Source of the DNA: a bacterium
GTDB lineage: Bacteria; Krumholzibacteriota; Krumholzibacteriia; Krumholzibacteriales; Krumholzibacteriaceae
Length of the DNA stretch: 64,000 bases
Direction: 5' to 3'
NCBI GenBank assembly: GCA_020350885.1
Contig: CP070727.1
Coordinates: 3,664,017 to 3,728,016, forward strand
In this document: positions 13,565 to 59,381 of the stretch, one piece after another
How positions within the stretch are numbered: the stretch's first letter is position 1
Layout: each line of letters opens with the position of its first letter
Made by a program: the position numbers and the translations under genes
Notes under the pieces: generated by a model
What the model was told of the DNA's origin: nothing
The model's input: only the letters and a program-made list of their open reading frames with translations
Database searches by the model: none

Positions 13565-13577
13565 TTGTCACCTCATC

Positions 13578-14791: not shown

Positions 14792-15058
14792 ATGCCGACG
14801 TATCACTACCTATGTGAACGCTGCGGACACGAGTTTGAAGTCGTTCAGCGGATTACCGATCCGCCCCGGAAACGTTGTCTGAAATGCCGGGGTCCCATTT
14901 ATCGTGTCATTCACCCCGTTGGACATATCCTGAAGGGAAGCGGATTTTACCGGACTGACTACCGTACCGATGAATTCAAGAAGCAGGAGAAGGCAGAAAC
15001 TGCGTCGACTACCCCCGACAAGACCGAGAAACCAAAGAAATCGAAGGATAAGGATTGA
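14792..15058 (+). CDS. FmdB-family zinc-ribbon protein with Lys-rich tail
   Basis: MPTYHYLCERCGHEFE...CLKCRG carries CxxC...CxxC. A GAGAGGAAGG ribosome-binding site lies upstream of the ATG at 14792. Confidence 0.7.
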   Translation: MPTYHYLCERCGHEFEVVQRITDPPRKRCLKCRGPIYRVIHPVGHILKGSGFYRTDYRTDEFKKQEKAETASTTPDKTEKPKKSKDKD

Positions 15059-15159
15059 AATCCATCTATCGGATGCGATTAAAAACGTGCAGCATGCAAG
15101 AATTGAGCGAATGTGCAGGCCGCCTCTCCGTTGCTCGCCCCTCTCCGGCTTTGCCTGCC

Positions 15160-28615: not shown

Positions 28616-29336
28616 TCGTCTCTCCTTCCTCGATGCACGAACCGGGCTCAGGGTGCTGGTCGAGTATGGTATTCGGGAACTTATCGGAAACCCGGCGGCT
28701 GACGACGCGGCCGATCTGAAATCCGAGCCTCGCGAGCCTGTCCCGCACAAACGGCAGATCCATTCCTATGAGATTCGGCATATAATATTTGCGCGGCTCG
28801 CCGCGCATGCAGATCAGGATATCAACCCGCGAGCCATGCGGCACTGATTCTCCCGCCGGGGGGAAGGTGGAAATGATGTTGTTCTGCCCATCTATGGGAC
28901 TGAAGATCCGTACGATTCGTCCCTTACGTAATCCCGAGCTCTCGAGAAGGAGTTCGGCCTGCCTGAGGGATTTATTCCTGAGTTCGGGAACAAACTCCAT
29001 GCGCCTCCCCGCGCTGACGACAACCCGTATTACCCGCCCCTCCTTGAGCTTTTCCTCGGGCTCGGGATCCTGCTCGATGATATACCCCTGAGGAACATCA
29101 TCCGAATGGCGTTCTCCTACAACGACGAGCTCCAATCCCCCATCGCTGCACTTTTCTTCCGCCAGTGCCAGACTCAAGCCCTCGAGCCCCGGCACGATCG
29201 TAACATCACCCCTGCCAACGAGCCCCGGCATGATTATGTAGTTGAAGATCAAGATGCCGACCAGAAACGCCCCGACGATGACCAGCGTGTAATAAATGAC
29301 AGGATGGACTTCCCGCCTCTTCCGCTCCGAATTCAT
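28587..29336 (-). CDS. PASTA-domain protein (N-terminal TM + 3 PASTA repeats), no kinase/PBP domain
   Basis: It has one TM helix followed by three ~65-aa PASTA-like repeats (VPGLEGLSLALAEEKCS..., VPELRNKSLRQAELLLE..., MPNLIGMDLPFVRDRL...). Confidence 0.65.
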   Translation of the reverse strand: MNSERKRREVHPVIYYTLVIVGAFLVGILIFNYIIMPGLVGRGDVTIVPGLEGLSLALAEEKCSDGGLELVVVGERHSDDVPQGYIIEQDPEPEEKLKEGRVIRVVVSAGRRMEFVPELRNKSLRQAELLLESSGLRKGRIVRIFSPIDGQNNIISTFPPAGESVPHGSRVDILICMRGEPRKYYMPNLIGMDLPFVRDRLARLGFQIGRVVSRRVSDKFPNTILDQHPEPGSCIEEGETIELVVSTVE

Positions 29337-40878: not shown

Positions 40879-42027
40879 CTAACCCAGTAAGTCGTTGTAA
40901 ATACTTACTATCTTGTCGCCCCAGATATCGGTATCGAAGTTCTCCAGCACCCGGACCCTCGCCTTCCGGCCCAGCTCGGAGCGGCGATCGGATTCGGTGA
41001 GAAGTGTGGAGGCGGCTCTGAGGAAGCTATCCTCATCTCCCGGCTCTACGAGTTCACCGGCATCCGCCAGTATCACTCCGACATCACCAACATCGCTGGC
41101 GATGCACGCAACCCCGGAAGCCATCGCCTCCAGGAGCGCAAGCGGCACCCCCTCAGTGAGTGAGGGGAGGATGTAGCAATCGAAGAGGGGATAGAGACGC
41201 TCGGGCTCCTCCAAGAACCCTGGCATGGCAAGGATACGACCGATACCGCACGTTCGTGCAAGTGCGGTCAAGGTTTCACGCTCGTCCCCCTCGCCGATGA
41301 TCATGTACCGCACATCGCTTCCGTCCCCGGACATCGACTCGCTCAGCCTGGCAGCCATCCGTATGAAGAGGGGATAGTTCTTTACCGCCTTCAACCCGCC
41401 GACCGCCCCGACCAGGAGGCACGACTCGTGGTCCGTTCCGGGAAAATAGCGTTCGAATAGCGACCGCCGCGCCGCGCTCCTCTCACCCGGTTCCAAAGGC
41501 TTGAACCGTCTCGTATCGACCGCATTCGGCAGCACGATTACCGTCCCGTCCGGAAAACCCTGCCGCCGCGCTTCCCGGGCGGCATCCCGGCTTACGGTGA
41601 TGATCCTTTTGAACCGTGACCGCAGGCACCTGATGAGAGTCACGCGCCACCACGCAAACTCGAGACCGCTGCTGTGCCTCGTCGAGATGGCGGGCACGCC
41701 CGAGAGAATCGAAGCGCAGGCAGCCACGATCTCGGCATGGAAGAGATGGGAATGGATGATGTCGGGCCGGAACCGGTGCATGATGCGCCTAAGGGCAACC
41801 ACGCTCTTCGGACGGATCAGATCTCCGAGTGAGAAGAGTGGTATGCGAAAGAGTGAAATCCCCTCTTCGATGAGGTTCCGCTCGAGACCGTCCTCCACCA
41901 CCGAGAGGGTACAGACGGCACAGCTATACGCAGAGGCTTTGAGATGGCGGCACAGGTTCAGGAGATGGTTTTCAGCACCACCACCCTGTAAGGAGCTGAT
42001 AATGAAAAGGATACGATAGTTTTCCAT
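40879..42027 (-). CDS. Glycosyltransferase family 4 (GT-B, GT1 clan)
   Basis: ILFIISSLQGGGAENHLLNL is the N-terminal Gly-rich motif. EGVPLALLEAMASGVACIASD is the E-x7-E region. The start was chosen at the ATG at 42027 (MENYRILF). Confidence 0.8.
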   Translation of the reverse strand: MENYRILFIISSLQGGGAENHLLNLCRHLKASAYSCAVCTLSVVEDGLERNLIEEGISLFRIPLFSLGDLIRPKSVVALRRIMHRFRPDIIHSHLFHAEIVAACASILSGVPAISTRHSSGLEFAWWRVTLIRCLRSRFKRIITVSRDAAREARRQGFPDGTVIVLPNAVDTRRFKPLEPGERSAARRSLFERYFPGTDHESCLLVGAVGGLKAVKNYPLFIRMAARLSESMSGDGSDVRYMIIGEGDERETLTALARTCGIGRILAMPGFLEEPERLYPLFDCYILPSLTEGVPLALLEAMASGVACIASDVGDVGVILADAGELVEPGDEDSFLRAASTLLTESDRRSELGRKARVRVLENFDTDIWGDKIVSIYNDLLG

Positions 42028-42041
42028 GTAGAGAATTCGTG

Positions 42042-43322
42042 TTAGGTGATGCGCTCGATGTTCTCCACGCTCTTCCTGCTGTCGGAATAGGAAAGCTTCT
42101 GGCTCCCCTCGATAACACGGAGCTTCGTGGTGATATGCGAGTGTTCGTAGACGTCCCTCGTGGTCTCGGCCTTTTCCCAGGCGGAACAACGGCTGCCACC
42201 GAGATAGGTGAGAATGGCCGTAAGTGCCGCACCATTCACGAGCACGAAGTAGAACGGCACGAAGAAGACCCGCGATTGAATCCTTCCCCGCCGCAGGAGA
42301 GAACCGATAATCGCCAGTATGTAGAAGATATTCTGCAGGATGAATAGTGTGAGGAAGAATGGTTGCGATACGAGCACCAGATTGGTGAAGTACAGCAGCG
42401 GTAGCATCGGCCCGATCCACCACCTGAGGAGTTTCCTCGATACGAACTGGAATATCCTCAGATGCCCGCCAAAACAGCTTCTCAGGGACCTGAATCCGGT
42501 CAATCCACGAACGATGATGCGGCGCTTGCGGGCGAATTCCTCCCGGAAGAAATAGGTCGATTTCTCGTATGCGACTGCCTCTCGCTCGTATACGACGTCA
42601 TACCCTTGATTGGCGACCTCGGCGGGAAGCTGAAAGTCGTTGGCGACATTACTGATAACGGGGCGGAACAGCTCCCTTCTGATGGCGAATATCGTACCGG
42701 TTCCGACAAGGACCGACCCGACCCGGCTCTCGAGCCGGTTCAGAAGCGATTCGTACCGCCAGTACAGGTTCTCACCCTTCCCGACGTACGAGTGGTTGCT
42801 GAGATAGACGAGCCTTCCAACGACACACCCGACATCCTCGTCCGCAAAGTTCTTGACGAGTTGTTGTATGGCATCCTCCCGGTAGAAGGCATTGGCGTCC
42901 GAGAAGACAAGGATATCATCATCGAGGCCGAGTACCGCACGGTTCAGCGTGGCGCTCTTGCCTTCCCTCGTATCGAAGGCCTTCAATACAAGATTCACAC
43001 CCTCGTAGCTACGCACGACGTCGTTGGTCTCGTCCATCGATCCATCACTCGCAATAACGATCTTGAGACGATCCCTCGGGTAATCGAGCTTCAGGCTGTT
43101 CTCGATCTTTTCCCTGATGATGCGTTCCTCGTTGTAGGCGGATATGATGAGGGCTACGCTCGGTACGTAGCGTTCATTCGAGGAGTGGCGGCGCCTTCTG
43201 AACAACCCGACGACGGCGAGTGCGAGCGGGTATCCGGCATAGACATACAGGATAACACTTATCACAGCGAGAAACAGGAGCTTCGCCGCAACCTGCATTT
43301 CAGCCTCCACAGATGTGGGCAA
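42042..43322 (-). CDS. Membrane glycosyltransferase family 2 (processive PgaC/CESA-like)
   Basis: N-terminal TM helices are followed by the GT-A domain (ALIISAYNEE, DGSMD, VFSDAN for D,D,D). C-terminal TM helices follow. Confidence 0.8.
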   Translation of the reverse strand: MPTSVEAEMQVAAKLLFLAVISVILYVYAGYPLALAVVGLFRRRRHSSNERYVPSVALIISAYNEERIIREKIENSLKLDYPRDRLKIVIASDGSMDETNDVVRSYEGVNLVLKAFDTREGKSATLNRAVLGLDDDILVFSDANAFYREDAIQQLVKNFADEDVGCVVGRLVYLSNHSYVGKGENLYWRYESLLNRLESRVGSVLVGTGTIFAIRRELFRPVISNVANDFQLPAEVANQGYDVVYEREAVAYEKSTYFFREEFARKRRIIVRGLTGFRSLRSCFGGHLRIFQFVSRKLLRWWIGPMLPLLYFTNLVLVSQPFFLTLFILQNIFYILAIIGSLLRRGRIQSRVFFVPFYFVLVNGAALTAILTYLGGSRCSAWEKAETTRDVYEHSHITTKLRVIEGSQKLSYSDSRKSVENIERIT

Positions 43323-43536: not shown

Positions 43537-46500
43537 TTATCGCATGATAATGAGCTTCCTCGTCTCACTCACGCCGGTACTTGTTACCAATCTATAGAAA
43601 TAGATGCCACTTGCAACGCTGCGGCCGTAATTGTTCTTCCCCTCCCAGCCGACTTCGTACCTGCCCGGTCTGCGATGACCGCCGAGGAGGGTCCGCACGA
43701 GTGCTCCCCGGCTATCGAAGATCGAAAGCTCCACGGTACACTCATGGGAGATGTCGTACCGTATGATCGTCGCCGGATTGAAGGGGTTCGGGTAGTTCTG
43801 GTGAAGGGCGGTCCGCTGAGGCGGTGTAGGGAACACATCTTCGTTCTCGTCTATGAACTCTGTGCTCCCGACTATCAGGACGAAGCGGGTCTCCCGCTCG
43901 AACGAGACGGGTGTGCGGGAGCCGAGATGGAATCCGTATGTTCCCTCCTCCTTCAGATCGGCCACGGTTCCGAGGTGCCTGTCGATGAGATAGATACGTG
44001 CATGGGAAGGCAGCCGCTCTAACCCGGTGAAGGACAGATCCACGGGGTCGCCGGCGGTCTCTACGGTAAAGTTCTTCGCCACATCGAAGTGCCAGATATG
44101 ACCCCAAAGGTCCTCCTCCCTTCCGATACCCTCCACAAGGGAGCGGGGGAGTACCCCATACCCTCCCCTGATGTCGACCGCATACCGCCCGGGATTCCGG
44201 CGCCAGCCCCCATGGGGAAAGTAGAGCGACACGGAACGTCCCGGGCTCATGGGTGGCTCGGAACGATCGAGCGGATCCTTTGTACTGACGGCTCGGTGGC
44301 GTACTCCCAGGGCATTCTCGATATCGCATGCGCCCTCAGTCCGCGCCTGAATCGTCAGCATCCACTCGTCCTCACCGAGCCCGTCATCCATCTGCGAGAG
44401 ATGGTCCGCCGATGCGATCTCCGGCTGACCCTGCGGTGCCTCATCCGGCGGAATGCTGAGTATGATGATGGTGTCGCGCAGGTTCTTGACCCAGTACCCC
44501 ACGAAGGGCTCCAGCATGTCCGTCCCGAAGAGATACCCGTCCTTCTCCCAGCGCACAGGCGGCTCGAGAACCGTCCCCACAGCCTCCGCCATCGCAAGAA
44601 GCGGTCCGCCGAGCGTATCGACACGTACCGAATCCCACGCGACCGGGAAGGCGAACGGCGTACCGATCATGTTGTATCCGGGAACGAGTGGAAGTGCGAA
44701 GGGGCCGCCGGTCGGTGTCGAAAGCCCCCGGGCCGGACCGGTTCCGATCTGGTGGCGATCCCGTGAGATGAGCCAGTAGGCCCGGCCCTGCTCGAATGAT
44801 TGCACGGTCTCATTCGGCACCTCGACATAGGCCGAATCGAGCGAATCGTATAGAAAGAGGCGCCACAGCGTGATATCGACCGGACCGAGATCGTCGATGA
44901 GAGCTCCCTCGATGGTCCCCTCCATGTCGAGGGGTATCGACATCATCCGGTATGTGCCCCCCGGATGCTCCCGGGCCTCCACGAGATCCTCCACCGTCAC
45001 CTGTAACGTCTTCGGATTGGTGATCATATCCGATGCCGGATCGGAGAGCGTGCTCGTAAGGGTCTGAATCTCCGCCCAGTACTCGATACCTCTGGCCCCC
45101 ACGATCGTATCGGGGATCGTCGCAAACGGAAGCGGGTCACCGTGTCCGAAATCGAACGTTTCGAAACCCACGGTGCCCCCCCGGCGTACATGAAGATCCC
45201 CCGCACTGAAGTGCGCACCGACGGGGAGGCTTACCTGGACGAGCACATCCCTGCCCGTGATGAAGTCCTGGCCCTCGTTCGGAATCGGTGTCGCCGTGAC
45301 GGATATCGGAGGTACGACTGGCCGGTACCACACGGAATCAGGCGCATTGGGCGGATCGGTCGTGAAGACGCCGCTGTTCTCGACACGGATGTAGTATTCG
45401 AGCCCCGCCTCCGTAACGGCCTCGCCCGGTATCACTACCATGAATGCGTCCTGTAATCTGGTGAGCGCTACGCTGTCCGCAAACACTCCGTCGGCGGCCG
45501 GGCGGTGGTACAGGTATCCCCTCTCGACACGGACATCGGGTGCGGGTGTCACGATCACGGTAACCGCCTCCCCGAGCGGCAGCTCATCCGCCTGCGCGAG
45601 AAGCATCGACTCGATCTCGAGGGCACGTATATCGGCCGTCACCGGGATGGCGATCTCCTGGCGGAGGGGATCGTTGCTTGCGATCCGCATCTCTCCCGAG
45701 GCAGAGAGGATCGTGCGCGGCTCGAGAAATACGCTGATCGTATCGGCTTCACCGGGGGCGACCGAGAGCGGGATCGTCTCCCCGATACGCATCTCGGGAG
45801 AAGGCAGCACGACTCCGGTCGCGGTGAGCACCAGGTTGCCACTGTTTTCGATCTCGATTTCGAGCGAGCAGGTATCACCGACATTGACCGTCGGAAAGGC
45901 GAGGGAGTCCGGTGCGGCCTCTATGGCCGGGCGGCTCGGGACGATCCGACCGACCCTCTTGTGATACGATGTGACATGCTGGCCCAGGCTGACCGAGGCG
46001 GGGATCGAGACGACCCTGAGCCGCAGGACGACGTCCCTCGAATCGAACGGCACGAGAGTAACATCACAATCGAGCGAATCCGGAACGCCTACTGGCGAGG
46101 TCCCGACAGGGCCCACGGGTATCGATGAGCCCAGTACCTCGAGGGGATACCACGTGGGCTCGCCCTCGAATTGATAGGCGGGGACGATCCAGGCTCTATC
46201 CGACTCGACATCGAAGCCGGTATACCAGATACGGTACGTGTTCATATCGACCTTCCGGACCTTCACAAAACGCAGGAAGGCGGGATTATCCGGGAGCTGA
46301 TTCGTCGGCGCGAGCAGGTCCCCCCGGTAGGCGGGGGTCCTGAGACCGGGGAACAGCTCGTTGTCGTGCCCGTCGTTTCCGCACACGAGGTCGAGGTCGC
46401 CATCGGCATCGACATCTCCGAGTGCCATCGAGTAGGTGATATACTCCTTGGTGACAGACCAGTATTGATACATCTGGAAGAGACCATCGTCGTTCAGGTA

Positions 46501-48522
46501 TACCCCGTAGAATCTTACATTTCCACACACCATATCGAGATCGCCGTCATTGTCGAGATCACCGAGAGAGATGCTATAGTCTCCCCCATAGGCGGACGTC
46601 CATGCAGGCGAGGATTGAAAGAGACCACCGTCGTTCAGGTACAATCTACTCGGGGCGCGCATGTTTGCACATACGAGGTCGAGTCGGCCGTCGTAGTCGA
46701 TATCCCCCAGCGCGACACACGCCGTTCCCGACGAAGGGGTCGATGACCACTCCGGCACCCCCCCGAAAACCTCCCCCCCGTTGAGATACAGTGTATTCTG
46801 CCCCATGTTGCCGCAAGCCAGATCCAGGTCCCCGTCGCCATCTGTATCCCCCAGAGCTATGGAGAAGGTGTTTAAACTCTCGGACTGCCAATCAGGAGGT
46901 TCACTGAACACACCGTCTTTGTTCAGGTACAGCCTGTTCCCATTCGGGTCGCCGCACAAGATATCGGTATACCCGTCACCATTGATATCATCCAGCACGA
47001 GGCTCTCGCCACCCTCAAAATCGGAAACCCACGAAGGCTCACTGGGGAAGGTTCCGCCGTCGTTCTCGTAGAGCTGCATCGAAACCCCCGGTGAGCCTCC
47101 CCAGAGGAGATCGAGATCCCCGTCATTGTCGACATCACCGAGAGCCGCCCCGGCGCTTACATCTCCTGAGGTCCAGAAGGGGGTATCCTCGAAGGTTGCG
47201 CCGTTGTTACGGTACATCGCGTTGTTGGGCCCACCGCCGGCCACGAGATCGGGGGCATCGTCTCCATTCAGGTCCCCCAGTACGACGACCATGGTCTGGT
47301 TTGACGGCAAGCCCGCCGACCATGTGGGCTCGGCCGGGAAGAGGTACCCGTTGTTCGTGTAGAGGGTGCTGACCTCTTGGTTGCCGAAGACGAGATCGAG
47401 ATCGCCGTCGCCGTCGACATCCGCGAAACCCATCCCCTCCGATTGGAACGACGGGGCCGTAGACCAGGCCGCAGCCGATTGGAGGCTGTCCCCGAGGTTG
47501 AGGTAGAGCCTGTTCGGTCCTTCGTTTGCGACGGCGAGATCGAGATCGCCGTCGCCGTCGGCATCACCCAGTTCGAGGGAATACGTCGTATCCGCCTCCT
47601 GGGATGTCCAGGAGGGGGTTTCCTCGAAGAGACCGCCAATGTTCATGTAGACGGTATTCGGCTCCATGTAGCTACCGCAGACGAGATCGAGGAGTCCGTC
47701 GCCGTTGATGTCGCCGAGGGCGAGGCATGCAGTCATCTCTTCCGGAATCGATTGCCATGAAGGAACGGTCCGCAGCGAATCGCCGTCGTTCAGGTAGAGC
47801 TCGTTCGCCTGGCCTAAGTTGCCGCACACGAGGTCCAGGTCGTTGTCGTTATCGATATCCCCCAGCGCGACGGCTGTTGTCCACATCGTGGCTCCCGCCG
47901 ACCAGGCCGGCTGCTGCGGAAAGGTCCCGTCCCCGTTGTTCAGAAAGAGCTTGTTCTGCTGAAAAAGGTTTCCGCAGACGAGGTCGAGGTGCCCGTCGCC
48001 GTTCACGTCGGCGAATGCGATACCGAATGTGCTGTCGGGGGATTCCGAGATCCATGCCGGCTCCTCCTGAAACACGCCCCCGTCACCGAGATACAACTTG
48101 TTATATCTGATACCCTCGAGGCCCCCGCAGGTGAAGATGTCGAGATCGCCGTCCCTATCCACATCACCGAGTGCGAACCGTAAACAGTCTATCGGACTCG
48201 ACGTCCAGAACGGCATGAGATCAAATACACGACCGTTGTTTCGGTATAGGGTCAGGTCACCGCCGGTAGCGATAATCAGGTCGAGGTCACCGTCACGGTC
48301 CAGGTCACAGAGCGCAGCATATTCCGCTCCCGCGGCTGTACCCGAAGTCCAGACGGGATCGACCGGGAATGGGGGCTCCTGCCCCTGGCATGGAACAGAA
48401 GCGGCAATGACAACAAGAAACGCAAGAACCGTTACGGTAAGACAAAACCGTGAAGCGGACGCCTGTACAACCGCGTACCTGCCCCGTCTGCGGGGATAGA
48501 TATGAGATCTTTCCATTTCCAT
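43537..48522 (-). CDS. Giant secreted FG-GAP/VCBS-repeat protein with T9SS C-terminal sorting domain
   Basis: It has a signal peptide (FCLTVTVLAFLVVIAASVPCQGQ). There are more than 14 repeats of the Ca-binding D-x-D-x-DG-x-x-D-L FG-GAP signature (GDVDRDGDLDIF, GDIDNDNDLDLV...). The C-terminus QNYPNPFNPATIIRYDI...GIYFYRL is a type-A T9SS C-terminal domain. The ATG at 48522 overlaps the kinase gene's TGA stop (TGATG). Confidence 0.85.
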   Translation of the reverse strand: MEMERSHIYPRRRGRYAVVQASASRFCLTVTVLAFLVVIAASVPCQGQEPPFPVDPVWTSGTAAGAEYAALCDLDRDGDLDLIIATGGDLTLYRNNGRVFDLMPFWTSSPIDCLRFALGDVDRDGDLDIFTCGGLEGIRYNKLYLGDGGVFQEEPAWISESPDSTFGIAFADVNGDGHLDLVCGNLFQQNKLFLNNGDGTFPQQPAWSAGATMWTTAVALGDIDNDNDLDLVCGNLGQANELYLNDGDSLRTVPSWQSIPEEMTACLALGDINGDGLLDLVCGSYMEPNTVYMNIGGLFEETPSWTSQEADTTYSLELGDADGDGDLDLAVANEGPNRLYLNLGDSLQSAAAWSTAPSFQSEGMGFADVDGDGDLDLVFGNQEVSTLYTNNGYLFPAEPTWSAGLPSNQTMVVVLGDLNGDDAPDLVAGGGPNNAMYRNNGATFEDTPFWTSGDVSAGAALGDVDNDGDLDLLWGGSPGVSMQLYENDGGTFPSEPSWVSDFEGGESLVLDDINGDGYTDILCGDPNGNRLYLNKDGVFSEPPDWQSESLNTFSIALGDTDGDGDLDLACGNMGQNTLYLNGGEVFGGVPEWSSTPSSGTACVALGDIDYDGRLDLVCANMRAPSRLYLNDGGLFQSSPAWTSAYGGDYSISLGDLDNDGDLDMVCGNVRFYGVYLNDDGLFQMYQYWSVTKEYITYSMALGDVDADGDLDLVCGNDGHDNELFPGLRTPAYRGDLLAPTNQLPDNPAFLRFVKVRKVDMNTYRIWYTGFDVESDRAWIVPAYQFEGEPTWYPLEVLGSSIPVGPVGTSPVGVPDSLDCDVTLVPFDSRDVVLRLRVVSIPASVSLGQHVTSYHKRVGRIVPSRPAIEAAPDSLAFPTVNVGDTCSLEIEIENSGNLVLTATGVVLPSPEMRIGETIPLSVAPGEADTISVFLEPRTILSASGEMRIASNDPLRQEIAIPVTADIRALEIESMLLAQADELPLGEAVTVIVTPAPDVRVERGYLYHRPAADGVFADSVALTRLQDAFMVVIPGEAVTEAGLEYYIRVENSGVFTTDPPNAPDSVWYRPVVPPISVTATPIPNEGQDFITGRDVLVQVSLPVGAHFSAGDLHVRRGGTVGFETFDFGHGDPLPFATIPDTIVGARGIEYWAEIQTLTSTLSDPASDMITNPKTLQVTVEDLVEAREHPGGTYRMMSIPLDMEGTIEGALIDDLGPVDITLWRLFLYDSLDSAYVEVPNETVQSFEQGRAYWLISRDRHQIGTGPARGLSTPTGGPFALPLVPGYNMIGTPFAFPVAWDSVRVDTLGGPLLAMAEAVGTVLEPPVRWEKDGYLFGTDMLEPFVGYWVKNLRDTIIILSIPPDEAPQGQPEIASADHLSQMDDGLGEDEWMLTIQARTEGACDIENALGVRHRAVSTKDPLDRSEPPMSPGRSVSLYFPHGGWRRNPGRYAVDIRGGYGVLPRSLVEGIGREEDLWGHIWHFDVAKNFTVETAGDPVDLSFTGLERLPSHARIYLIDRHLGTVADLKEEGTYGFHLGSRTPVSFERETRFVLIVGSTEFIDENEDVFPTPPQRTALHQNYPNPFNPATIIRYDISHECTVELSIFDSRGALVRTLLGGHRRPGRYEVGWEGKNNYGRSVASGIYFYRLVTSTGVSETRKLIIMR

Positions 48523-50471
48523 CACCTTCGCCGAAACAGTGATGAAAGAAACGATCCTCCCTCTGTGCCCCCGGCCTGCTGTGCCAGGATGAAATCGTTC
48601 AACGTCTTCGAGCAGATCGAGTACTCCCCGTCCGAGGCGAGCAGGTATCCCCTGCGCATGAGATCCTCGTTTACGAACTGATACTTCTTGCTTATCGACT
48701 TGCCCGAGGCGATGCGGCCGAGGTTCTCCCGCTCCTCCTCATTCATGCGCTCCCACAGGAACTGGTAGTGGGGAGAGACCTCGTCTATGTACGAACGAGC
48801 AATCTGCTCCCAATCGGGCTCGGAGTCGGGATTGTCGAGGAGGAATTCGAAGACGTTCGAGCAGGCGATCTGGAGGAAAAGGGGGAAGTAACCCGCCAGC
48901 TCGATGATCCTTCCCGCGTGCGCCCCGAGCGGAATCCCCTCTCGCTCGGAAGGGTCTGTGATGAGCTCTACTGCCTCGTCCCGGCTGAAGGCCCTGAGCG
49001 GCAGGTTCGAGAATATGTTGAAGAACGGCGAATCGGAGATGTCCTTGTTGTGGCACATGAGCTGGAGCTCCTCGCAGGAGGAGGTGACGTAGGCGACATG
49101 GTAGCTGTTCGCCAGCGAGCGCAGGAAGGAGAAAAAGTCCTCCTCGAACTTCTCGTTCTTCGTGATCACCTCGAATTCATCCATGAGAACGATGATTCTG
49201 TTGCCCTGATCGTGGAGCTCCTGTACCACTTCCTTGAGCTGGTCCAGCGTCCTGTCCCGTCCGGAGTACCCCTCGCTGTCCTGCGTCTCGAAGCTGAAGA
49301 CGTTGAAGAGAAAATCGATGAATTTGGGCACGTCGAAGTCGACGTTGCGCTGGAAATCGAGATAGACGAAGATTGCATTCTCGTAGTGCTGCATGTTCTG
49401 CTTACGGTTCCGGCGGTTGTAGATGAAGTTCAGGAGCGACGACTTTCCGATACGCCGTTCGCCGACGACTGAGATCGATTGCGGATGGGGCGCATCGAGG
49501 CGCGAATAGATCTTCCGGACCTCCTTGCTCCTGCCCACTAAATCGACCGGGTTCTTGATCATGACTCTGTTGAGATAGGGATTGCGCTTGCTGCTGCGCT
49601 TGGCGAATGCCTTGACATCCGGAAGAGAAGCGATCACAGCGCTCTCGTCATCGGCATACTTCTTGAGCAGCGTAGCAAGATCGTCTGCGAGTTCGTTGAA
49701 GTCGCTGTACCGCTTGTTCGGGCTCTTCTCGAGGCACCGCCGGATGACGGTCTTGAAATCCGTGGGTACCTCGTCGACGAATTCGAGATTCGATTCATTC
49801 ACGATTGAATACATGAGGGCAGCCGGGTGTTCGGCTTCGAACGGGAAGTAGCCGTTGAGGATGCGGAAGAGACAGACACCGAAGGAGAAGATATCGGTGC
49901 GCTCGTCGACCGGCTCGCCGAGTATCTGCTCGGGTGATATATACGAGGGAGTTCCCATCATCGTATTGCCGGTGGTCTGGATCGACGTGTTTACGAGCTT
50001 GACGAGACCGAAATCGAGGATCTTCACCCGGGCACCCTCGCCGCTCGCCGTATCGAGCATGATATTCTTGAGCGTGAGATCCCGATGTATGACCCCCTGG
50101 CCGTGTGCGCACAACATCGCCTTGCAGACCTGGAGTGCCAGCGAGCATTCCTGTGAGATCGTAAGCGATCCTTTCCCGATAAATTCTTCGAGTGAGGGAC
50201 CGTGTATGTGTTCCATGACGAGGAAGGTCTTTCCCTCGAAGTCCCCGCAGTCGAAGACCGTCACGATGTTCGGATGGTTTATCCTCGCAAGGGTTTCCGC
50301 CTCCCGGATCAACCGCTCACGGGCACTGCTATTGACACCGCCTGCGGTGAGGATCTTCACTGCAACCGGCCGCTTCAGTTTCATATCGACCGCCTGGTAG
50401 ACGGTGCCGAAGCCGCCCTCTCCGATCTTCTTCTCGATCTCGTACTTTTCTAAGAGAACCGTTCCAATCAT
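48522..50471 (-). CDS. Hanks-type Ser/Thr protein kinase fused to a C-terminal P-loop NTPase (AAA_16/STAND-like) domain
   Basis: Kinase motifs are IGEGGFGTVY (GxGxxG), AVKIL (VAIK), HRDLTLKN (catalytic loop), DFG and PSYISPE (APE). The C-terminal half carries LVGRSKEV...SVVGERRIGKSSLLNFI (Walker A) and DEFE (Walker B-like). Confidence 0.85.
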   Translation of the reverse strand: MIGTVLLEKYEIEKKIGEGGFGTVYQAVDMKLKRPVAVKILTAGGVNSSARERLIREAETLARINHPNIVTVFDCGDFEGKTFLVMEHIHGPSLEEFIGKGSLTISQECSLALQVCKAMLCAHGQGVIHRDLTLKNIMLDTASGEGARVKILDFGLVKLVNTSIQTTGNTMMGTPSYISPEQILGEPVDERTDIFSFGVCLFRILNGYFPFEAEHPAALMYSIVNESNLEFVDEVPTDFKTVIRRCLEKSPNKRYSDFNELADDLATLLKKYADDESAVIASLPDVKAFAKRSSKRNPYLNRVMIKNPVDLVGRSKEVRKIYSRLDAPHPQSISVVGERRIGKSSLLNFIYNRRNRKQNMQHYENAIFVYLDFQRNVDFDVPKFIDFLFNVFSFETQDSEGYSGRDRTLDQLKEVVQELHDQGNRIIVLMDEFEVITKNEKFEEDFFSFLRSLANSYHVAYVTSSCEELQLMCHNKDISDSPFFNIFSNLPLRAFSRDEAVELITDPSEREGIPLGAHAGRIIELAGYFPLFLQIACSNVFEFLLDNPDSEPDWEQIARSYIDEVSPHYQFLWERMNEEERENLGRIASGKSISKKYQFVNEDLMRRGYLLASDGEYSICSKTLNDFILAQQAGGTEGGSFLSSLFRRR

Positions 50472-52711
50472 TGCCGCTCACTCTCTTGTGCAAAACTGTA
50501 CTCGAACGGAACTGTCTGGCCCGATTTCACCTCGACGGTACGCTCGACCGTTTCGTAGGATGGATGACGCAGTTCGATCCGGTAGGTCCCCGGGGCGAGC
50601 TCGACAGGCAGATAGACCGCACTCTCCTCGATCAACTCACCATTTATCCATATCTCGGCATAGGGTGTGATCTGGAATACCAGTGTCCCGGGGGGAAGGG
50701 GTCCGAGTGTCACCCGGACACGGTTGTTCGGTGCCGGAATCGAGATCCTGCTCCTCTCCGTACGGAATCCCTCAAGTCTCAGCTCGAGAACATGCTCCCC
50801 CTGGGAAACGGAGGCGAGGCTCGTCGGCGCCGTTGCGATCTTCCGCCCATCGAGATACACAACGGCCCCCGCCGGTTCGGAATCGACAGTAAGCGGGTGG
50901 GTGAGCTTCGAGAATGAGTGATGGAGGGCGACCATCGAGTCGTTGTACACCGACACACCTTGAAAGCTCCGGCTGCTGTACCCCGAAAGACGGAGGTCGA
51001 TGTCGTACCGCTGGTTGACCGAGAGCCCGGTGAGCGTGTCCGGGGTCACCGATCCGGAGTCCTCCCCGTCTACGACGATACGTGCCCCGGGTGGATCGGT
51101 GGTGACGTGGAGGTTCCCCCGAAGCTCCTCGAGAACGATCATGCGTTCGAACGGCTCGTTCTTCACCAGCTCTACCGAATCGATGTACTCCTGGTATCCC
51201 GAAAGCTCGGCCCGTACTGTGGTATGCCTGGCCGCCACCGTTTCTCGTTCTACAGGTGATCTGCCGATCCACTGCTCTCCGATGAAGATGTTGGCCTGGG
51301 CTGGTTGTGTCCTGACCGTTACGACCGTAGAATCGCGAGCGCGACCGCCCCCGATACCACCGGCACCCGGCACACCGGCCCGAAAGAATATCTGGTAGAG
51401 AAACAGAAGGGCAACCACAACGATAACGGCCGAGGAAACAGCAATGATGCGTGTACGGGAGAATCGCTTTCCGACCGGTCTGAGCCCCTCCTCGAGCTCC
51501 TCTTCGCTACCACCGATCTCGTTTATCACCTGCCAGATCGAATGCATGCGGGCCATCCACAGCCGCCACAGGTCCATCTTGAACGTATAGGTATCCCCCC
51601 GTGCGTTCTTCTCCAGCAGGTCATGGTAAAAGAGCCGCTCCACCGTCTCCCGCACCTTGTTCCCGTCGAGCTGGTAGCCGATTTTTTCTTCTGCGGAAAA
51701 CGCAACGATCTCGTCAGGAGCGACCTCACGGATATCCTCCTTGCTCAACTCCGCAATGATCGAGATCGACACCTTTTCGAGGGCCGAGAGCGATGTCCAC
51801 GAAAAGATCATCTGGGGGAGCGGGTTCTCTATGATCTCCCGTGTGACTTCCCGCACGTCTTCCTGTGTCACCCGGTTCTTCTCCTTCTCGTTCAGGTGGT
51901 CCACCAGTGATTGACACAGGACCTGTGTATAGAAGGGCTGTCCGGCCGTGAGCGAATAAATCTCTTCCGGTACATCTTCGTCGTAGGAAACCGAGTCCCG
52001 CACCGGATCGCGTATCAGCCGCATGGTATCGGCCTCACTCAGAAAGCTTATTCTCCGGTGGAGTGCCTTGCCCAGGAAGTGCTCCCAGTACCGGGGATTG
52101 CGTGCTTCGAGCTTGTCGGAGCCGGTGAAGATGATAAAGACCCCTGCCCTGTGTTCCATCCATCCCGCCAGGGCGTTCAGTATGTCCGTGCTGAAACGGT
52201 TCTTGTCGATATGTGTCTCGAAGAGCTCGTATTCATCGAACATCAAAACGAGCTTTCTATCTCCCAGCCTTGCACCAATCCTCTCGGTTAAGATCTGGAA
52301 TGCTGCATATGGATTATCAGTTGCACGGGCTGTGAAATCCCGCTCGAATATGATCTCCGGATCACCGATCGACTCGGTAACCTCCCGGGCGAGTGATTCG
52401 AGGAACTCGTGATCGTTTTCCACCGTCATCGACTGCATATCGATGAGTATCGGAATATAACTCTCGCCGAGTCGCCCCCCCTTGATCTGAAAGAGTATCG
52501 ACGTCTTTCCGCTTCGCCGTGTCCCGCACAGAACGATCAAACCTCCCCGCGTGGCACCCGTGACCTTTTTCCTGATGTACTCGAAGTCATCCTCACGGCC
52601 GAAGAACATCCTGCGGTCCTCGATTGGATTGCCAACGATGTATGGATTGTGGATCATCTGGAATGTGTCATCATCTTCTGGTCGCATCGCGGGGCTCCTT
52701 ACACGTACCAC
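50468..52711 (-). CDS. P-loop NTPase (AAA_16/STAND-like)-TM-4xPEGA domain protein
   Basis: The N-terminus NPYIVGNPI..FFGRED...LCGTRRSGKTSILFQI is Walker A, with MFDEYE downstream. There is a single TM helix (IIAVSSAVIVVVALLFLYQIFF). Four PEGA-like repeats follow (PAQANIFIGEQWIGRSP..., PPGARIVVDGEDSGSVTP..., PAGAVVYLDGRKIATAP..., PYAEIWINGELIEE...). Its stop overlaps the kinase start (ATGA). Confidence 0.8.
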   Translation of the reverse strand: MVRVRSPAMRPEDDDTFQMIHNPYIVGNPIEDRRMFFGREDDFEYIRKKVTGATRGGLIVLCGTRRSGKTSILFQIKGGRLGESYIPILIDMQSMTVENDHEFLESLAREVTESIGDPEIIFERDFTARATDNPYAAFQILTERIGARLGDRKLVLMFDEYELFETHIDKNRFSTDILNALAGWMEHRAGVFIIFTGSDKLEARNPRYWEHFLGKALHRRISFLSEADTMRLIRDPVRDSVSYDEDVPEEIYSLTAGQPFYTQVLCQSLVDHLNEKEKNRVTQEDVREVTREIIENPLPQMIFSWTSLSALEKVSISIIAELSKEDIREVAPDEIVAFSAEEKIGYQLDGNKVRETVERLFYHDLLEKNARGDTYTFKMDLWRLWMARMHSIWQVINEIGGSEEELEEGLRPVGKRFSRTRIIAVSSAVIVVVALLFLYQIFFRAGVPGAGGIGGGRARDSTVVTVRTQPAQANIFIGEQWIGRSPVERETVAARHTTVRAELSGYQEYIDSVELVKNEPFERMIVLEELRGNLHVTTDPPGARIVVDGEDSGSVTPDTLTGLSVNQRYDIDLRLSGYSSRSFQGVSVYNDSMVALHHSFSKLTHPLTVDSEPAGAVVYLDGRKIATAPTSLASVSQGEHVLELRLEGFRTERSRISIPAPNNRVRVTLGPLPPGTLVFQITPYAEIWINGELIEESAVYLPVELAPGTYRIELRHPSYETVERTVEVKSGQTVPFEYSFAQESERQ

Positions 52712-52755: not shown

Positions 52756-53511
52756 TTACTGACCCGGTGGCGCGGGAGGTTCGGGCAGCGGCTCAGGCTG
52801 GGGAGCTCCTTCGCCGCCGGCGCCGCCGAGGGTCACGGCGAGGATGATGCCCGCCGCAACCGCTGGGCCGATACGGTAGAACCACCAGCGCTTGTTGCGC
52901 CGACGGTCCATTGAGACTTCCAGGATATGTTTTCCGCTCGGATCGATCCTGATCGTCTCTTTATAATCGTAATATCCGGACTTCGTAACCATGAGCTCAT
53001 ATGAGCCGATCCTGATGAGATCGAGCTTGAGCGGCGTTTCCCCCTTGAATTCTTCACCGAGAAAAACTCTACAGTCCCCTGGCTTAGTGATCTCCAAGGT
53101 GCCGAACATCTCGCTCCGGAGCTGGTTGTATATTTCATTTACCCGCGGGGGGAACTCGACCGGATCGGCTACCAGGTCGGCAAACTGCTCCAATCCTTCG
53201 CGGGCCTGTGCAATGGCGCTTGCATCCTCTTTCATCAAAAGGAACGTAAACACTATGTGGTTATACGCACGCTTCAGGATATCATCCGATTCGGAATACT
53301 GATTGATGATGTTGTTGAGCAGCTGTATCGCCTCGTTGAACTCACCCCGTGCCCTGAGAGAGCTTACCAGCTCCCACTTCTGATATATCTGCTCCTGAGC
53401 GGCACCACGGGCAACCGAGGCGTAAGACGAGATCAAAAACAGTACGCACAGTAGTATGGTAAACGAACAGAAACGCCGCGAGAACGAGAAACGGATCTCT
53501 GAAAGGCACAT
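52756..53511 (-). CDS. TPR-like + PEGA domain membrane protein with Pro-rich tail
   Basis: It has a signal/TM segment (FCSFTILLCVLFLISSYASVA) and a helical TPR-like region. The PEGA domain is GDCRVFLGEEFKGETPLKLDLIRIGSYELMVTKSGYYDY. A TM helix and a PQPEPLPEPPAPP tail follow. The start was chosen at the ATG at 53511. Confidence 0.65.
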   Translation of the reverse strand: MCLSEIRFSFSRRFCSFTILLCVLFLISSYASVARGAAQEQIYQKWELVSSLRARGEFNEAIQLLNNIINQYSESDDILKRAYNHIVFTFLLMKEDASAIAQAREGLEQFADLVADPVEFPPRVNEIYNQLRSEMFGTLEITKPGDCRVFLGEEFKGETPLKLDLIRIGSYELMVTKSGYYDYKETIRIDPSGKHILEVSMDRRRNKRWWFYRIGPAVAAGIILAVTLGGAGGEGAPQPEPLPEPPAPPGQ

Positions 53512-53637
53512 GGCCCGACCTCCATCCAAGGGCTTCGACGATATCTTTTCGTAAATATTCCCTGTATAACTTATCATATATGAAGAGGATAGATTATAGC
53601 AAGACAAATCTGCGCAGCGTGTGGGAAACCCCGTTCA

Positions 53638-55635
53638 CTATGGCATGACCTTCGTCACACCTCCATATTGCGTTCCGATCCACAGCGAGCCGGAATGATC
53701 CTCACAGAGCGTGCGGATGTGTCCATCGGTCAATCCCTGTGAGATCTGCACATGAATCCACTCTCCCCGGCGTCTGACATAGACCCCGTCACTCTCCGTC
53801 CCGACCCAGATCTCGCCCCTGCTCGTACCGATGATCGCCGTCGGCACGAAACCGGAGACACGCTGTGGCGGATCGATTATCTGCCACCCCGTACCCGTCA
53901 GCCGGAAGATGCCGTCTTGCCGAGCCAGCAGACAATTACCGGCCATATCGAGCCCGAGTATGTTGCCCCGTGACCGGGTACCCTCCGGTTCGCTCCCCTC
54001 GAGCCTGCCGAGGAATCGGATCCCGGGATCGAGTCGCAGAAGCGTATCCTGCTGGGCACCGGACGTATCGGCTCCCGCTCCGTAGGGAACCGGTAAGACC
54101 GCCTCCTCCCAGCGTCCCTCCGAATACCTCGCCAATGTACCGTCCGCGGTGAGAATCCATGGATACCCCGCTCCATCGACGACGAGGGAGCCGATACGGT
54201 TCTGCGGAAGTCCGTTCCTCTCGGTATAGTGAATCCACTCCCGCCCGGTGAACTCGAGTACGCCGCGATCGAACGAAGCGAACCATAAACTACCTGAAGG
54301 ATCGAAGGAGAGCGCCACGAAATGCTCCGTCGGCAATCCCTGACGCCTGTCGAACAGATTCCATGATCGGCCGTCGAAGTGAAGTATCCCGAAACGTGTG
54401 GCGACCCACATCTCCTCATCGTCTGTGACGAAGAGATCAGTCATCGTCCCGGAGCACCATTCCAGCGGCGGGGTGACTTCGGTTAGATCCTCCCCGAGTC
54501 GGTAGATGCTCCGCTCGGCAAGAAACCAGAGCGCCGGGCCGAACCGTTGCACGGATATGACATGCTTGCTCGGAAATCCTTGGGGCATAGCAACTTCCCG
54601 CACTGCGTCCCTCGAGAGGACGAAGACGGTGCCCTCGTCGGTGCCGAGGTAACAGATCCCCTCGAGGTCATGATGAATCGACAGGAACCGGTACTGTGTA
54701 AGATTCACGCCCGGTAGCCGATAGGGTGTCCACGCCGAGCCATCGAAGCTACTCACGCCCGCCCCGCCCGCAGCCCACAGGCGGCCCGTAGGATCGAGGC
54801 TGAAGCCATGGATCTCATCGCTGGGAAGACCATCCCTTACCCCAAACAGCCGAACACGCCCGAGATTGTACAGAACAACCCCCTTGCGTGCGATCGCCAG
54901 AAAAAGATTTCCTTCCTCATCCAGCGCAAGTTCCTCCACTGCACCGATGGGAATACGGCTCCCGTACCGCATCGATTCCCAACTCAGTGTATCCGACCTG
55001 CACAGTCCGCTCGCAGTTCCGAACCATACCGTGTGTGGGTCCTGCTCGAGGATCGTCAGCACACGGTCGTCGAGCAGGGAATCCTGCCGGGTATAGACGG
55101 TGAGTGAATCGTCTCGTATATAGGCGCATCCATCGCCGTATGTCGCGATCCACACCACGGCATCGCCGCGAACGATGTCCGTGACCCTCCTGAAAAAACC
55201 GCGGTGCCCGGAGGGTAGATGAATCCACCTGCCGTCCCGTCTCACACTTACGCCCCCGTCGCCCCCCACCCAGAGCGAACCGGTATCATCGGCCATGATT
55301 GTCCGTATCGAGACAAATGCCGGTCCCCTGACCGATGAAACGGAGTCCTCCACCGTGTTGTAGGCGAAGAGCCCGCCCTCCGTCCCGACCCATAATGTAT
55401 CATCCTGGCTGAGAAGCGCTCTGATCTCCCTGGCGGGAACATGCCGAACGATGGTTCCTGAAAGGCCAAAAGGACCGAGCCGGTCAACCCAGTACAGGGG
55501 CTTCCGGTCACCTGAAACGATCCACCCACCGGGTTCTCTCGGTTCCTCCTCGGGGATTTCTTCGCCGGCAAGAGGGGTGGCACCGATCACGAGTGCGAGA
55601 ATTCCAAGCAATGAGACGACTGTCCGAATGTTCAT
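53638..55635 (-). CDS. Secreted double beta-propeller protein built from ~14 two-component-regulator propeller (Reg_prop) repeats. There are no kinase or HTH domains
   Basis: It has a signal peptide. It contains about 14 recurring ~45-aa units with the [LF]W[VIF][GA]T..G[LV] signature (DDTLWVGTEGGLFAYN, GSLWVGGDGGVSV, HTVWFGTASGLCR, EEMWVATRFGILHF, GEIWVGTESDGVYV, GSLWIGTQYGGVTKV...). Confidence 0.75.
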   Translation of the reverse strand: MNIRTVVSLLGILALVIGATPLAGEEIPEEEPREPGGWIVSGDRKPLYWVDRLGPFGLSGTIVRHVPAREIRALLSQDDTLWVGTEGGLFAYNTVEDSVSSVRGPAFVSIRTIMADDTGSLWVGGDGGVSVRRDGRWIHLPSGHRGFFRRVTDIVRGDAVVWIATYGDGCAYIRDDSLTVYTRQDSLLDDRVLTILEQDPHTVWFGTASGLCRSDTLSWESMRYGSRIPIGAVEELALDEEGNLFLAIARKGVVLYNLGRVRLFGVRDGLPSDEIHGFSLDPTGRLWAAGGAGVSSFDGSAWTPYRLPGVNLTQYRFLSIHHDLEGICYLGTDEGTVFVLSRDAVREVAMPQGFPSKHVISVQRFGPALWFLAERSIYRLGEDLTEVTPPLEWCSGTMTDLFVTDDEEMWVATRFGILHFDGRSWNLFDRRQGLPTEHFVALSFDPSGSLWFASFDRGVLEFTGREWIHYTERNGLPQNRIGSLVVDGAGYPWILTADGTLARYSEGRWEEAVLPVPYGAGADTSGAQQDTLLRLDPGIRFLGRLEGSEPEGTRSRGNILGLDMAGNCLLARQDGIFRLTGTGWQIIDPPQRVSGFVPTAIIGTSRGEIWVGTESDGVYVRRRGEWIHVQISQGLTDGHIRTLCEDHSGSLWIGTQYGGVTKVMP

Positions 55636-58202: not shown

Positions 58203-59381
58203 TCAGAGTCTGAGCAGTTTTCGGAGCCGCCTAAGGTCGTTTGTGGCGATCTCGATCAGCTCGGATAAGGCGTTCGATTCGTCTTCGTCACGCGTTCTCA
58301 TCCCGACCCATCCCCACCACGCCACCAGGACGGCGGACCATACGAATCCAATGGCGGTCGAAACGATCACGATGGCCCACCGGGGAAATCCCGCAGGCTT
58401 CTCCGGCAGATTCGGTTCATCGATGACCTGAACGGTCGGCGTATTGCGGGCTTTTTCTATTCCGGCCTCTTCATACTGCTCGCGCAGGAACGAGTACACA
58501 CGCTCGTTGACCTCGAGATCCCGTTCCATCGTGGCGTATTGCTGATAGAGTTCCGGCAGCTGCCGGAGCGGAACAAAAACCGCCTCGGCGGTATCGCCTT
58601 CCATGATCTTGTTGAGTTCCTGGAGATAGTTTTGGTATTCCGCCTCCTTGCGGAGGAGCTCGACGGCGTCCCTGCGGGCGAACTCCCTCAGAAGATCGAG
58701 CTCGATCTTTGTAATCGTAGTCCTGACCTTGATGTCGGCGGCCACATCGATCGCACCCCGAACCTGCTCCTCGAAGTCGACGATACCGTACTCATGCTGG
58801 AAACGGGATATCTCTTCACGTACCGCATCGAGCTGTTGCCGGTATTTTACGATCTGCTCGGATATAAAGCCGATCGTATTGGCGGCCCGGGTAAACTGAA
58901 GATAATGGTTCAACGTGTCGAGACCCTCGATATAGTACCGGGCGATCCTGACGGCCATCTCGGGTTCCTCATCCCGCACCTTGAGCCGTATCAAGCCTGT
59001 CTTGGTCACCGAGATCCTGGTGCGGGAATGCAGCTCCCCCACCGCCTCCTCCACCGTATCCGCGTCGTAACGCTTCTTGAGCCCGAGTGTCCTCACGATC
59101 ATCTCGCCCAGACGACGGCTCTCGATGATATCGGCAAGTATCGCAGCCGATGTGGAACCTCCCGTCGCCGGAATAACCACGGAGGGAAGGTTCAACTGGG
59201 CCATCCACGCGGTGAGCAACCCTTCACCCCCCTCCTCGAAGGGCGGCAGCAAGAGTGCCTTCGTTTCGTACTTGCGATCGGCGATCAAGGCGTACAGCAA
59301 GGATACGAAGAAGAACAGGAAGGTTACCAACAGAATAGGGCGTCGTTTGAGTATTACGAAATGCAAGAGGCGAAATCCCAT
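58203..59381 (-). CDS. Polysaccharide chain-length determinant (Wzz/PCP) family protein without kinase domain
   Basis: An N-terminal TM helix is followed by a long coiled-coil periplasmic region and a C-terminal TM helix (WAIVIVSTAIGFVWSAVLVAWWGW). The architecture is Wzz/GumC-like. Confidence 0.6.
   Translation of the reverse strand: MGFRLLHFVILKRRPILLVTFLFFFVSLLYALIADRKYETKALLLPPFEEGGEGLLTAWMAQLNLPSVVIPATGGSTSAAILADIIESRRLGEMIVRTLGLKKRYDADTVEEAVGELHSRTRISVTKTGLIRLKVRDEEPEMAVRIARYYIEGLDTLNHYLQFTRAANTIGFISEQIVKYRQQLDAVREEISRFQHEYGIVDFEEQVRGAIDVAADIKVRTTITKIELDLLREFARRDAVELLRKEAEYQNYLQELNKIMEGDTAEAVFVPLRQLPELYQQYATMERDLEVNERVYSFLREQYEEAGIEKARNTPTVQVIDEPNLPEKPAGFPRWAIVIVSTAIGFVWSAVLVAWWGWVGMRTRDEDESNALSELIEIATNDLRRLRKLLRL

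Follow-up and report, generated by a model that had tools for sequence, protein, structure and literature searches.

A large FG-GAP repeat protein ending in a type IX-like sorting domain is genetically linked to a kinase, paired-ATPase, and PEGA gene cassette in Krumholzibacteriota and related lineages

We analyzed a 64-kb stretch of DNA (the window) from a member of the Krumholzibacteriota (contig CP070727.1, positions 3,664,017 to 3,728,016). Its minus strand encodes a very large protein with FG-GAP/VCBS repeats, here called the giant. Reading from upstream to downstream, the genes are those of a small PEGA protein, an ATPase-PEGA protein, a Ser/Thr kinase, and the giant, followed by GT2 and GT4 glycosyltransferase genes; we refer to the first three as the cassette (Table 1). 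The open reading frame (ORF) of the giant is the longest of its neighborhood, and its translation contains no internal stop. It is identical to NCBI entry UCF05135.1 (1659 amino acids [aa], 'MAG: VCBS repeat-containing protein [bacterium]'), which lies with the adjoining kinase, UCF05136.1, on one 4,126,035-bp contig. A total of 6,951 homologues were found at an E value of ≤1e-10, dozens of them full-length at 35-52% identity, so the reality of the giant is far beyond chance. Taken alone, the giant is an ordinary large FG-GAP surface protein, already annotated by NCBI as a VCBS repeat protein. The value of the locus lies not in the giant itself but in its conserved linkage with the PEGA, paired-ATPase, and kinase genes and in an unannotated module that it carries.

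Table 1. Features of the giant gene, the adjoining cassette, and a second gene carrying the sorting domain (window positions)
Feature	Position	Strand	Remarks
FG-GAP/VCBS giant	43537..48525	minus	Longest ORF, 1662 aa from GTG 48525; stop codon 43537-43539
Likely true start of giant	ATG 48516	minus	1659 aa; NCBI's choice; AAGGTG 6 nt before
Signal peptide	48382..48516	minus	Basic n-region RRRGR, then hydrophobic core FCLTVTVLAFLVVIAASVP, then CQGQ
14 FG-GAP/VCBS repeats	46321..48342	minus	Residues 62-735, each with a D-x-D-x-D-G-x-x-D calcium-type motif
Ig-like stalk, about four beta-sandwich domains	45001..46305	minus	Residues 741-1175; AlphaFold2 model and Foldseek
ASH/choice-of-anchor-D-like domain in stalk	45652-45936	minus	Residues 864-958; below cutoffs
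Conserved module ahead of sorting domain, two beta-rich subdomains	43801..45000	minus	Residues 1176-1575
C-terminal sorting domain, T9SS type-A/FlgD-Ig-like	43540..43794	minus	Residues 1578-1662; motifs NYPNPFNP, SGIYFYRL, terminal RKLIIMR
Ser/Thr kinase (residues 10-264) fused to nSTAND2 NTPase (residues 329-582)	48522..50471	minus	Cytoplasmic; Pkinase, nSTAND2
ATPase-TM-4xPEGA protein	50468..52711	minus	STAND-like ATPase at ~20-320, transmembrane (TM) helix 422-440, four extracytoplasmic PEGA domains
Small PEGA membrane protein	52756..53607	minus	N-terminal signal/anchor, coiled region, one PEGA domain (E, 4.3e-8), C-terminal hydrophobic segment
M14 zinc carboxypeptidase + InhA-like MAM ORF	5503-7491	minus	Interrupted by frameshift
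Second sorting domain in window	5177-5545	minus	95.9 bits to family profile; different frame from peptidase ORF, overlap of ~43 nt

The giant begins with a signal peptide, the 19-residue hydrophobic core of which (residues 27-45; Kyte-Doolittle peak of 2.45 by a hydropathy heuristic) is the only hydrophobic segment of the protein; there is no transmembrane (TM) tail. Judging from the sequence, the signal peptide is probably cleaved before a Gln. A small residue followed by Gln (e.g., AQ) also stands after the core in 35 of 50 homologues, a pattern reminiscent of the pyroglutamate 'Q-rule' of Bacteroidetes (PMC5837995); the lineages concerned here are of the Latescibacterota/Eisenbacteria type. 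The Pfam count proposed for the repeats bore them out: FG-GAP_3 (PF13517) matched 13 stretches (E, 7.9e-103; 337.5 bits against a cutoff of 26.9), FG-GAP (PF01839) reached 155.4 bits (E, 2.4e-46; cutoff, 22.1), and a motif scan located 14 D-x-D/N-x-D/N-G-x-x-D motifs with a period of 46-52 residues. Because the 14 motifs span residues 62 to 735, the repeat region measures about 675 aa; the original prediction was right about the repeats but too generous in giving the region ~800 aa. None of the 14 repeats is missing from 53 full-length relatives, and their motif columns are nearly invariant in the resulting 54-sequence alignment. The only sequence relative of the repeats in the PDB is CRTAC1, an FG-GAP propeller protein (9etn; E, 2e-8). 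As 14 is twice seven, the repeats probably form two seven-bladed beta-propellers.

The 53 relatives, at 32-55% identity, also keep the whole C-terminal half of the giant. An AlphaFold2 model of residues 741-1662 (m2aa3f401528d, from the 54-sequence alignment) is all-beta, with a mean predicted local distance difference test score (pLDDT) of 89.8. Its first part is the stalk, within which fall both of the significant matches of a profile search against PDB sequences (2qsv and FAP74). A Foldseek search with the 922-residue model returned only generic Ig-like chains, such as those of hydin/CFAP and alpha-2-macroglobulin. One stalk domain resembles ASH (18-20 bits) and choice_anch_D (38.5 bits), both under the cutoff. 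Pfam, the motif scan, hydropathy, and AlphaFold2 therefore agree with the original prediction of a large secreted protein with calcium-motif FG-GAP/VCBS repeats and a beta-rich middle. The accompanying label 'integrin-like' fits the FG-GAP repeats and Ig-like legs and nothing else, there being no TM tail and no beta-subunit partner.

Between the stalk and the sorting domain lies a conserved module of ~400 residues. No Pfam or NCBIfam family matched it, and within it the profile search against PDB sequences found nothing significant. A 405-residue AlphaFold2 model of the module (m971a5e3c977f; pLDDT, 89.9; predicted template modeling score, 0.88) retrieved nothing from the PDB by Foldseek at an E value of ≤0.001. 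The module is widespread: a phmmer search of 1.84 billion cluster representatives gave 4,040 matches at an E value of ≤1e-3, 1,876 at 1e-10, and 292 at 1e-30. Among the matches listed, the host proteins range from ~350 to 2,200 residues, and in the 150 best-scoring of the 4,040 matches the module generally ends ~80-90 residues from the C terminus. A metagenome scan with the middle region of the giant returned 48 loci (L025-L072; loci are cited by L numbers throughout), of which 47 were module bearing. Most of these match only the module and the sorting domain, which are thus the constant part. The heads above the module may be FG-GAP repeats, a beta-helix with ASH-type Ig domains, BNR repeats with fn3 domains, or nothing that Pfam recognizes. 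We regard the module as a candidate for a new domain definition.

The original prediction assigned the C terminus to the type A sorting domains of the T9SS (type IX secretion system). This assignment held in that the corresponding NCBI model, TIGR04183, was passed with 26.6 bits against a cutoff of 23 (residues 1578-1660, model positions 2-71 of 72), though PF18962, the Por_Secre_tail family named for the check, stayed below its threshold. In the AlphaFold2 model the domain has six strands by DSSP (model residues 846-920) at a pLDDT of about 90, consistent with a beta-sandwich. Module-bearing relatives do pass PF18962, with 46.3 and 28 bits. The nearest sorting-domain sequences nearly all carry PF18962 and, where named, belong to 'T9SS type A sorting domain' proteins from Zixibacteria, Marinimicrobia, Calditrichota, and Ignavibacteria. 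The lineages that host the giant belong to the FCB group, in which T9SS is reported (PMC11205867, PMC9170169). The same domain occurs a second time in the window, next to a peptidase ORF, and positions 5177-7491 look like one secreted peptidase of ~770 residues broken by a frameshift (an assembly indel or a pseudogene). Since this M14 carboxypeptidase/MAM gene ends in the same domain as the giant, the sorting signal is used on other cargo in the genome. When the sorting domain was used as a query for further cargo or PorU of the same genome, only short fragments from other sources were returned.

The three cassette proteins were characterized by profile searches and hydropathy. The kinase protein has no hydrophobic or TM segment and combines a Pkinase domain (E, 7e-53) with an nSTAND2 domain (PF20702; 155.3 bits against a cutoff of 24); the catalytic K, HRD, and DFG residues and both Walker motifs are conserved, and the usual C-terminal sensor repeats are lacking. 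The ATPase-PEGA protein, the stop codon of which overlaps the kinase start (ATGA), matches PEGA over four stretches (E, 5.5e-39) and has one TM segment ahead of the PEGA domains. Its ATPase module is itself below recognition by PF20702 at an E value of ≤0.001 and is paralogous to that of the kinase protein, as judged by BLASTP (23% identity over 314 aa) and by hhalign of two 16-sequence alignments (probability, 98.3%; E, 2.1e-14; 270 columns). Neither Walker A (GxRRxGK[ST]S) nor Walker B (DE[FY]E) varies within either set of 16 sequences. The small PEGA protein, the real start of which is probably Met33, near position 53511, was found in every cassette locus with enough sequence. At one locus (L076, 15044-16823), gene calling parts the kinase (262 aa) from the nSTAND2 NTPase (332 aa) and gives two overlapping genes, which may be either a natural split or an assembly frameshift. 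Elsewhere in the window, the only match of a minus-strand ORF (28587-29336) is to the half of PknB-type kinases that holds the C-terminal PASTA repeats (116.8 bits); this ORF and the longest-ORF call for ribulose-phosphate epimerase (27932-28750) overlap at the upstream end of the latter.

The linkage between the giant and the cassette is robust and was observed in both directions. The giant family occurs in Latescibacterota, Eisenbacteria, Krumholzibacteriota, and related uncultured lineages. At 10 of the 11 informative loci reached through the giant, the cassette stands beside it (L002 in Eisenbacteria, L003, and L004 in Latescibacteria, together with L026, L027, L031, L073, L074, L075, and L076), and the tie to the upstream kinase operon that had been proposed from this one locus is thereby upheld. 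Gene order is rearranged at three of these loci: L026 and L076 open with the giant, and L075 is divergent, with the small PEGA gene after the giant. The rearrangements argue for functional linkage rather than inherited order. In the other direction, the kinase led to 20 species-level genomes (50-66% identity, about 16 informative loci) of Latescibacterota, Eisenbacteria, and Krumholzibacteriota and of bins labeled Fibrobacteraceae and Acidobacteriota. The three cassette genes were always together where sequence was available, with a giant directly downstream in 10 loci and nearby in two (L015 and L022). At L020 the place of the giant is taken by an RCC1-propeller protein of 1621 residues that shares its module and sorting domain, and in L005 and L016 giant genes are duplicated in tandem.

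Kinase genes also accompany the module under other heads. Six loci of the metagenome scan have a kinase gene beside a module-bearing gene (L039, L046, L047, L056, L058, and L061), and two more carry the full cassette. In L046, L047, L056, and L058 the PEGA repeats lie in the same ORF as the kinase by tblastn, a fusion that Pfam confirmed in L046 and L056. Altogether, about nine kinase genes were found in roughly 350 kb of DNA flanking module-bearing genes; by a rough estimate, this exceeds several-fold the density at which such kinases usually occur. FHA-like and PP2C-type genes, recognized from motifs read by eye, precede the kinase-PEGA gene in L046 (2184-7728) and L061 (2487-6196), and a GAF-SpoIIE phosphatase gene precedes the cassette in L074 (1860-3146). 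From their sequences, kinase, FHA, and phosphatase genes near module-bearing cargo amount to a predicted full Ser/Thr phospho-signaling set.

How closely the giant is coupled to the kinase gene was assessed from their junction, which reads GGTGATGGAAATGG on the minus strand. Here the kinase stop TGA (48524-48522) is overlapped by a GTG (48525-48523) and an ATG (48522-48520), as the original prediction had read, and a further ATG follows at 48516-48514. The last of these is preceded, 6 bases upstream, by the Shine-Dalgarno-like AAGGTG; neither GTG 48525 nor ATG 48522 has a site at such a spacing. AGGAGG-like sites are frequent at well-defined genes of the window (those of EF-G, YebC, RuvA, TyrS, and CysD), indicating that the window uses Shine-Dalgarno sites. 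ATG 48516 is therefore likely to be the start of the giant and is better supported than GTG 48525, so that a 5-nt gap, not an overlap, follows the kinase stop. At orthologous loci, the spacing from the kinase stop to the giant is -1 nt (L031), +1 (L007 and L074), +21 (L073), +36 (L002), +58 (L008), +76 (L004), +128 (L018/L027), +169 (L005), and >200 (L006). As the spacing varies and gene order differs in three loci, tight coupling of the two genes is not a conserved property. Thus, the overlap can be read in the junction but not as the likely start, and the claim built on it, that translation of the giant depends on the kinase gene, is not supported in view of ATG 48516 with its AAGGTG, the NCBI start, and the spread of spacings. 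Cotranscription of the giant with the kinase gene is likely. A promoter and terminator scan across the operon gave counts at chance level.

We hold with moderate confidence that the exported giant and the PEGA, paired-ATPase, and kinase proteins together make up one signaling set. According to this explanation, the giant would be carried to the cell surface or into the medium via a type IX-like pathway, where calcium-dependent binding of its propeller head to an external ligand or surface may take place. The conserved module would communicate with the membrane proteins through their PEGA domains, and the PEGA proteins in turn could couple to the two ATPases, which would form a hetero-oligomeric nucleotide switch controlling the kinase. 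In keeping with this, both ATPases have intact Walker motifs, and the pair matches the two-gene nSTAND2 theme, for which a hetero-toroid was predicted (PMC8195603). The signal might run from the outside in, as sensing, or from the inside out, as control of the display or release of the giant.

Several observations sit uneasily with this explanation. PEGA domains on an inner-membrane protein are periplasmic, whereas a finished T9SS cargo lies beyond the outer membrane; module and PEGA domains could therefore meet only in transit or via another component. A giant homologue of another member of the Krumholzibacteriota (L001) has no cassette and lies among exosortase, PEP-CTERM, and polysaccharide genes, and cassettes in L009, L017, L021, and L024 have no giant neighbor within the locus sequence covered. 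None of the ~45 ORFs of the window matched a T9SS core gene (SprA/Sov, PorV, PorU, or PorK/L/M/N) in NCBIfam and Pfam searches. Lastly, the sorting domain fails PF18962 (19.1 bits with the whole protein and 20.5 bits with the C-terminal half; cutoff, 27) and is outscored there by FlgD_ig, which passes with 32-33 bits against its cutoff of 27. Just upstream of the cassette, a secreted Reg_prop beta-propeller protein of 665 residues is encoded (53638-55635, minus strand), and this gave a weak partial match to the T9SS PorZ model (38.7 bits against 260). The Reg_prop gene and the M1/M61-like upstream genes were considered as parts of the system and dropped, since they are not conserved at other loci.

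The strongest of the alternatives, though in our view an unlikely one, is that the giant is a free-standing adhesin or matrix protein that is merely cotranscribed or coregulated with the cassette, the two sharing an envelope or exopolysaccharide locus. The glycosyltransferase genes directly downstream in the window would fit, as would the kinase-free L001 homologue amid its exosortase and polysaccharide genes, the sulfatase, sulfotransferase, and PMT_2 genes that flank L002 and L003, and the very commonness of FG-GAP/VCBS proteins with sorting domains (6,951 matches). However, the polysaccharide genes are not conserved among loci, whereas the cassette keeps its place beside the giant at all but one informative locus despite changes in gene order and strand, and the module and sorting domain adjoin kinase-PEGA genes again when they occur under other heads. 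A polysaccharide locus had been considered as the leading explanation and was dropped because the neighboring genes vary from locus to locus.

Envelope-glycan genes do surround the cassette in the window (40879-43322, 58203-59381, and 12332-16563 on the minus strand; 2532-4016 on the plus strand). They comprise GT2 and GT4 directly downstream, a chain-length determinant, a Wzy_C/O-antigen-ligase-like gene, CysD/CysN for sulfate activation, and a sulfatase. Genes for sulfatase and sulfotransferase recur in the flanks of L002 and L003, and no consistent pattern of glycan genes was established.

Rather less probable still is that the four genes are an nSTAND2-type conflict system in which the giant, with its variable head, serves as a sensor or decoy for phage or competitors and the ATPases fire a kinase effector. 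As first described, nSTAND2 is the NTPase carried by both products of a two-gene operon; the products were predicted to form a hetero-toroid, and the system was predicted to be directed against invaders (Kaur, Iyer, Burroughs, and Aravind, 2021, eLife; PMC8195603). In related iSTAND conflict systems, a PEGA domain that follows a TM helix has been remarked on as a cell wall-associating part (PMC7159879). Variable heads (FG-GAP, RCC1, beta-helix, BNR, or none recognized by Pfam) on a constant base, the tandem duplicates in L005 and L016, and a kinase-STAND protein devoid of the usual sensor repeats are all compatible with such a role. Yet PADLOC returned only generic kinase-domain matches, no toxin-type effector is present, and both ATPases keep their active-site motifs, unlike those of the described pairs. 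The cassette sits amid housekeeping genes in the window and appears to be conserved, at 53-66% identity, across several phyla rather than being patchy and mobile; no mobility genes were seen, though no systematic test was made.

Least probable of the alternatives, and to our minds doubtful, is that the C-terminal domain is a FlgD-Ig-like beta-sandwich serving anchoring or another export route, which would leave the giant in the periplasm or on the inner-membrane side; the order of the FlgD_ig and PF18962 scores, the window devoid of T9SS genes, and the simple contact that a periplasmic giant could make with PEGA domains speak for it, but TIGR04183 is passed, module-bearing relatives pass PF18962, the closest sorting-domain relatives carry that family and are annotated as T9SS type A, the domain stands at the extreme C terminus as in known cargo and also ends a secreted peptidase of the same window, and the hosts fall within the FCB group, where T9SS has been reported.

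Returning to the exported giant and the cassette as one signaling set, we consider it conceivable, at a low probability, that the four genes encode an envelope-spanning receptor. The surface protein, exported via the type IX-like pathway and bearing an interchangeable head (FG-GAP, RCC1, beta-helix, and others), would then act as an in-trans sensor for the cytoplasmic STAND ATPase pair, the kinase would provide the output, and the PEGA domains and the ~400-residue module would be the connecting pieces. If true, this arrangement would parallel, in bacteria, a receptor that is distinct from the NLR-like switch it feeds, and it would serve either for sensing surfaces or neighbors or for defense.

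Whatever the mechanism, Ser/Thr kinase, PEGA, and paired STAND-ATPase genes are linked, in several candidate phyla, to the giant family and, more widely, to a module of ~400 residues that recurs in about 4,000 protein clusters. The linkage provides a testable handle on the ligands of PEGA domains and on the input wiring of nSTAND2 ATPase pairs, and it bears on whether type IX-like cargo takes part in signaling or only in adhesion and degradation. The module gives annotators a new domain to define, and the start-codon argument for this locus is corrected. A literature search retrieved no published account of the cassette, of the module, or of their linkage to the giant, which is not proof of absence; searches on T9SS in Latescibacteria, Eisenbacteria, and Krumholzibacteria and on PEGA with STAND and FG-GAP retrieved only general remarks on nSTAND2 and PEGA.

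The giant resembles T9SS type A cargo with FG-GAP/VCBS repeats in its signal peptide, its repeats, its Ig-like domains, and a terminal beta-sandwich of ~85 residues that passes TIGR04183. It differs from such cargo in its fixed head of 14 repeats, in the conserved ~400-residue module, for which Pfam and NCBIfam have no model, and in its near-obligate adjacency to the cassette. With integrin alpha, bacterial integrin-type propellers (PMC3192720), and CRTAC1 (9etn) it shares D-x-D-x-D-G FG-GAP repeats followed by Ig-like 'leg' domains. Unlike integrin alpha, it has 14 repeats instead of seven, lacks a TM tail, and ends in a sorting domain for predicted export; Pfam identified no vWA/beta-I partner in the window cassette. 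A VWA protein is encoded directly after the giant in L003 (15281-16744) and a VIT-VWA protein in L073 (13172-15292), which is curious with respect to the integrin alpha/beta analogy; a VWA partner gene is absent from the window.

The cassette is comparable to PknB-PASTA-type kinases and to kinase-TM-PEGA fusions, in which a Hanks-type kinase is linked to extracytoplasmic beta-sandwich repeats over one TM helix. In the window, however, kinase and PEGA domains are on separate proteins, joined only via the two paralogous ATPase modules. Its likeness to nSTAND2 two-gene systems lies in adjacent genes for paralogous STAND-type NTPases, one of which matches PF20702. In the described pairs, one NTPase is inactive or eroded, and the fused part is GT4 or HEPN (PMC8195603). 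Both NTPases of the cassette, in contrast, keep Walker A and B, and the parts fused to them are a Ser/Thr kinase and a TM helix with four PEGA domains. Having neither an eroded NTPase nor a GT4 or HEPN effector, the cassette is set apart from the described nSTAND2 systems; in addition, its setting is chromosomal, it appears to be shared across phyla by conservation rather than by mobility, and it has two further conserved partners, the small PEGA protein and the exported giant.

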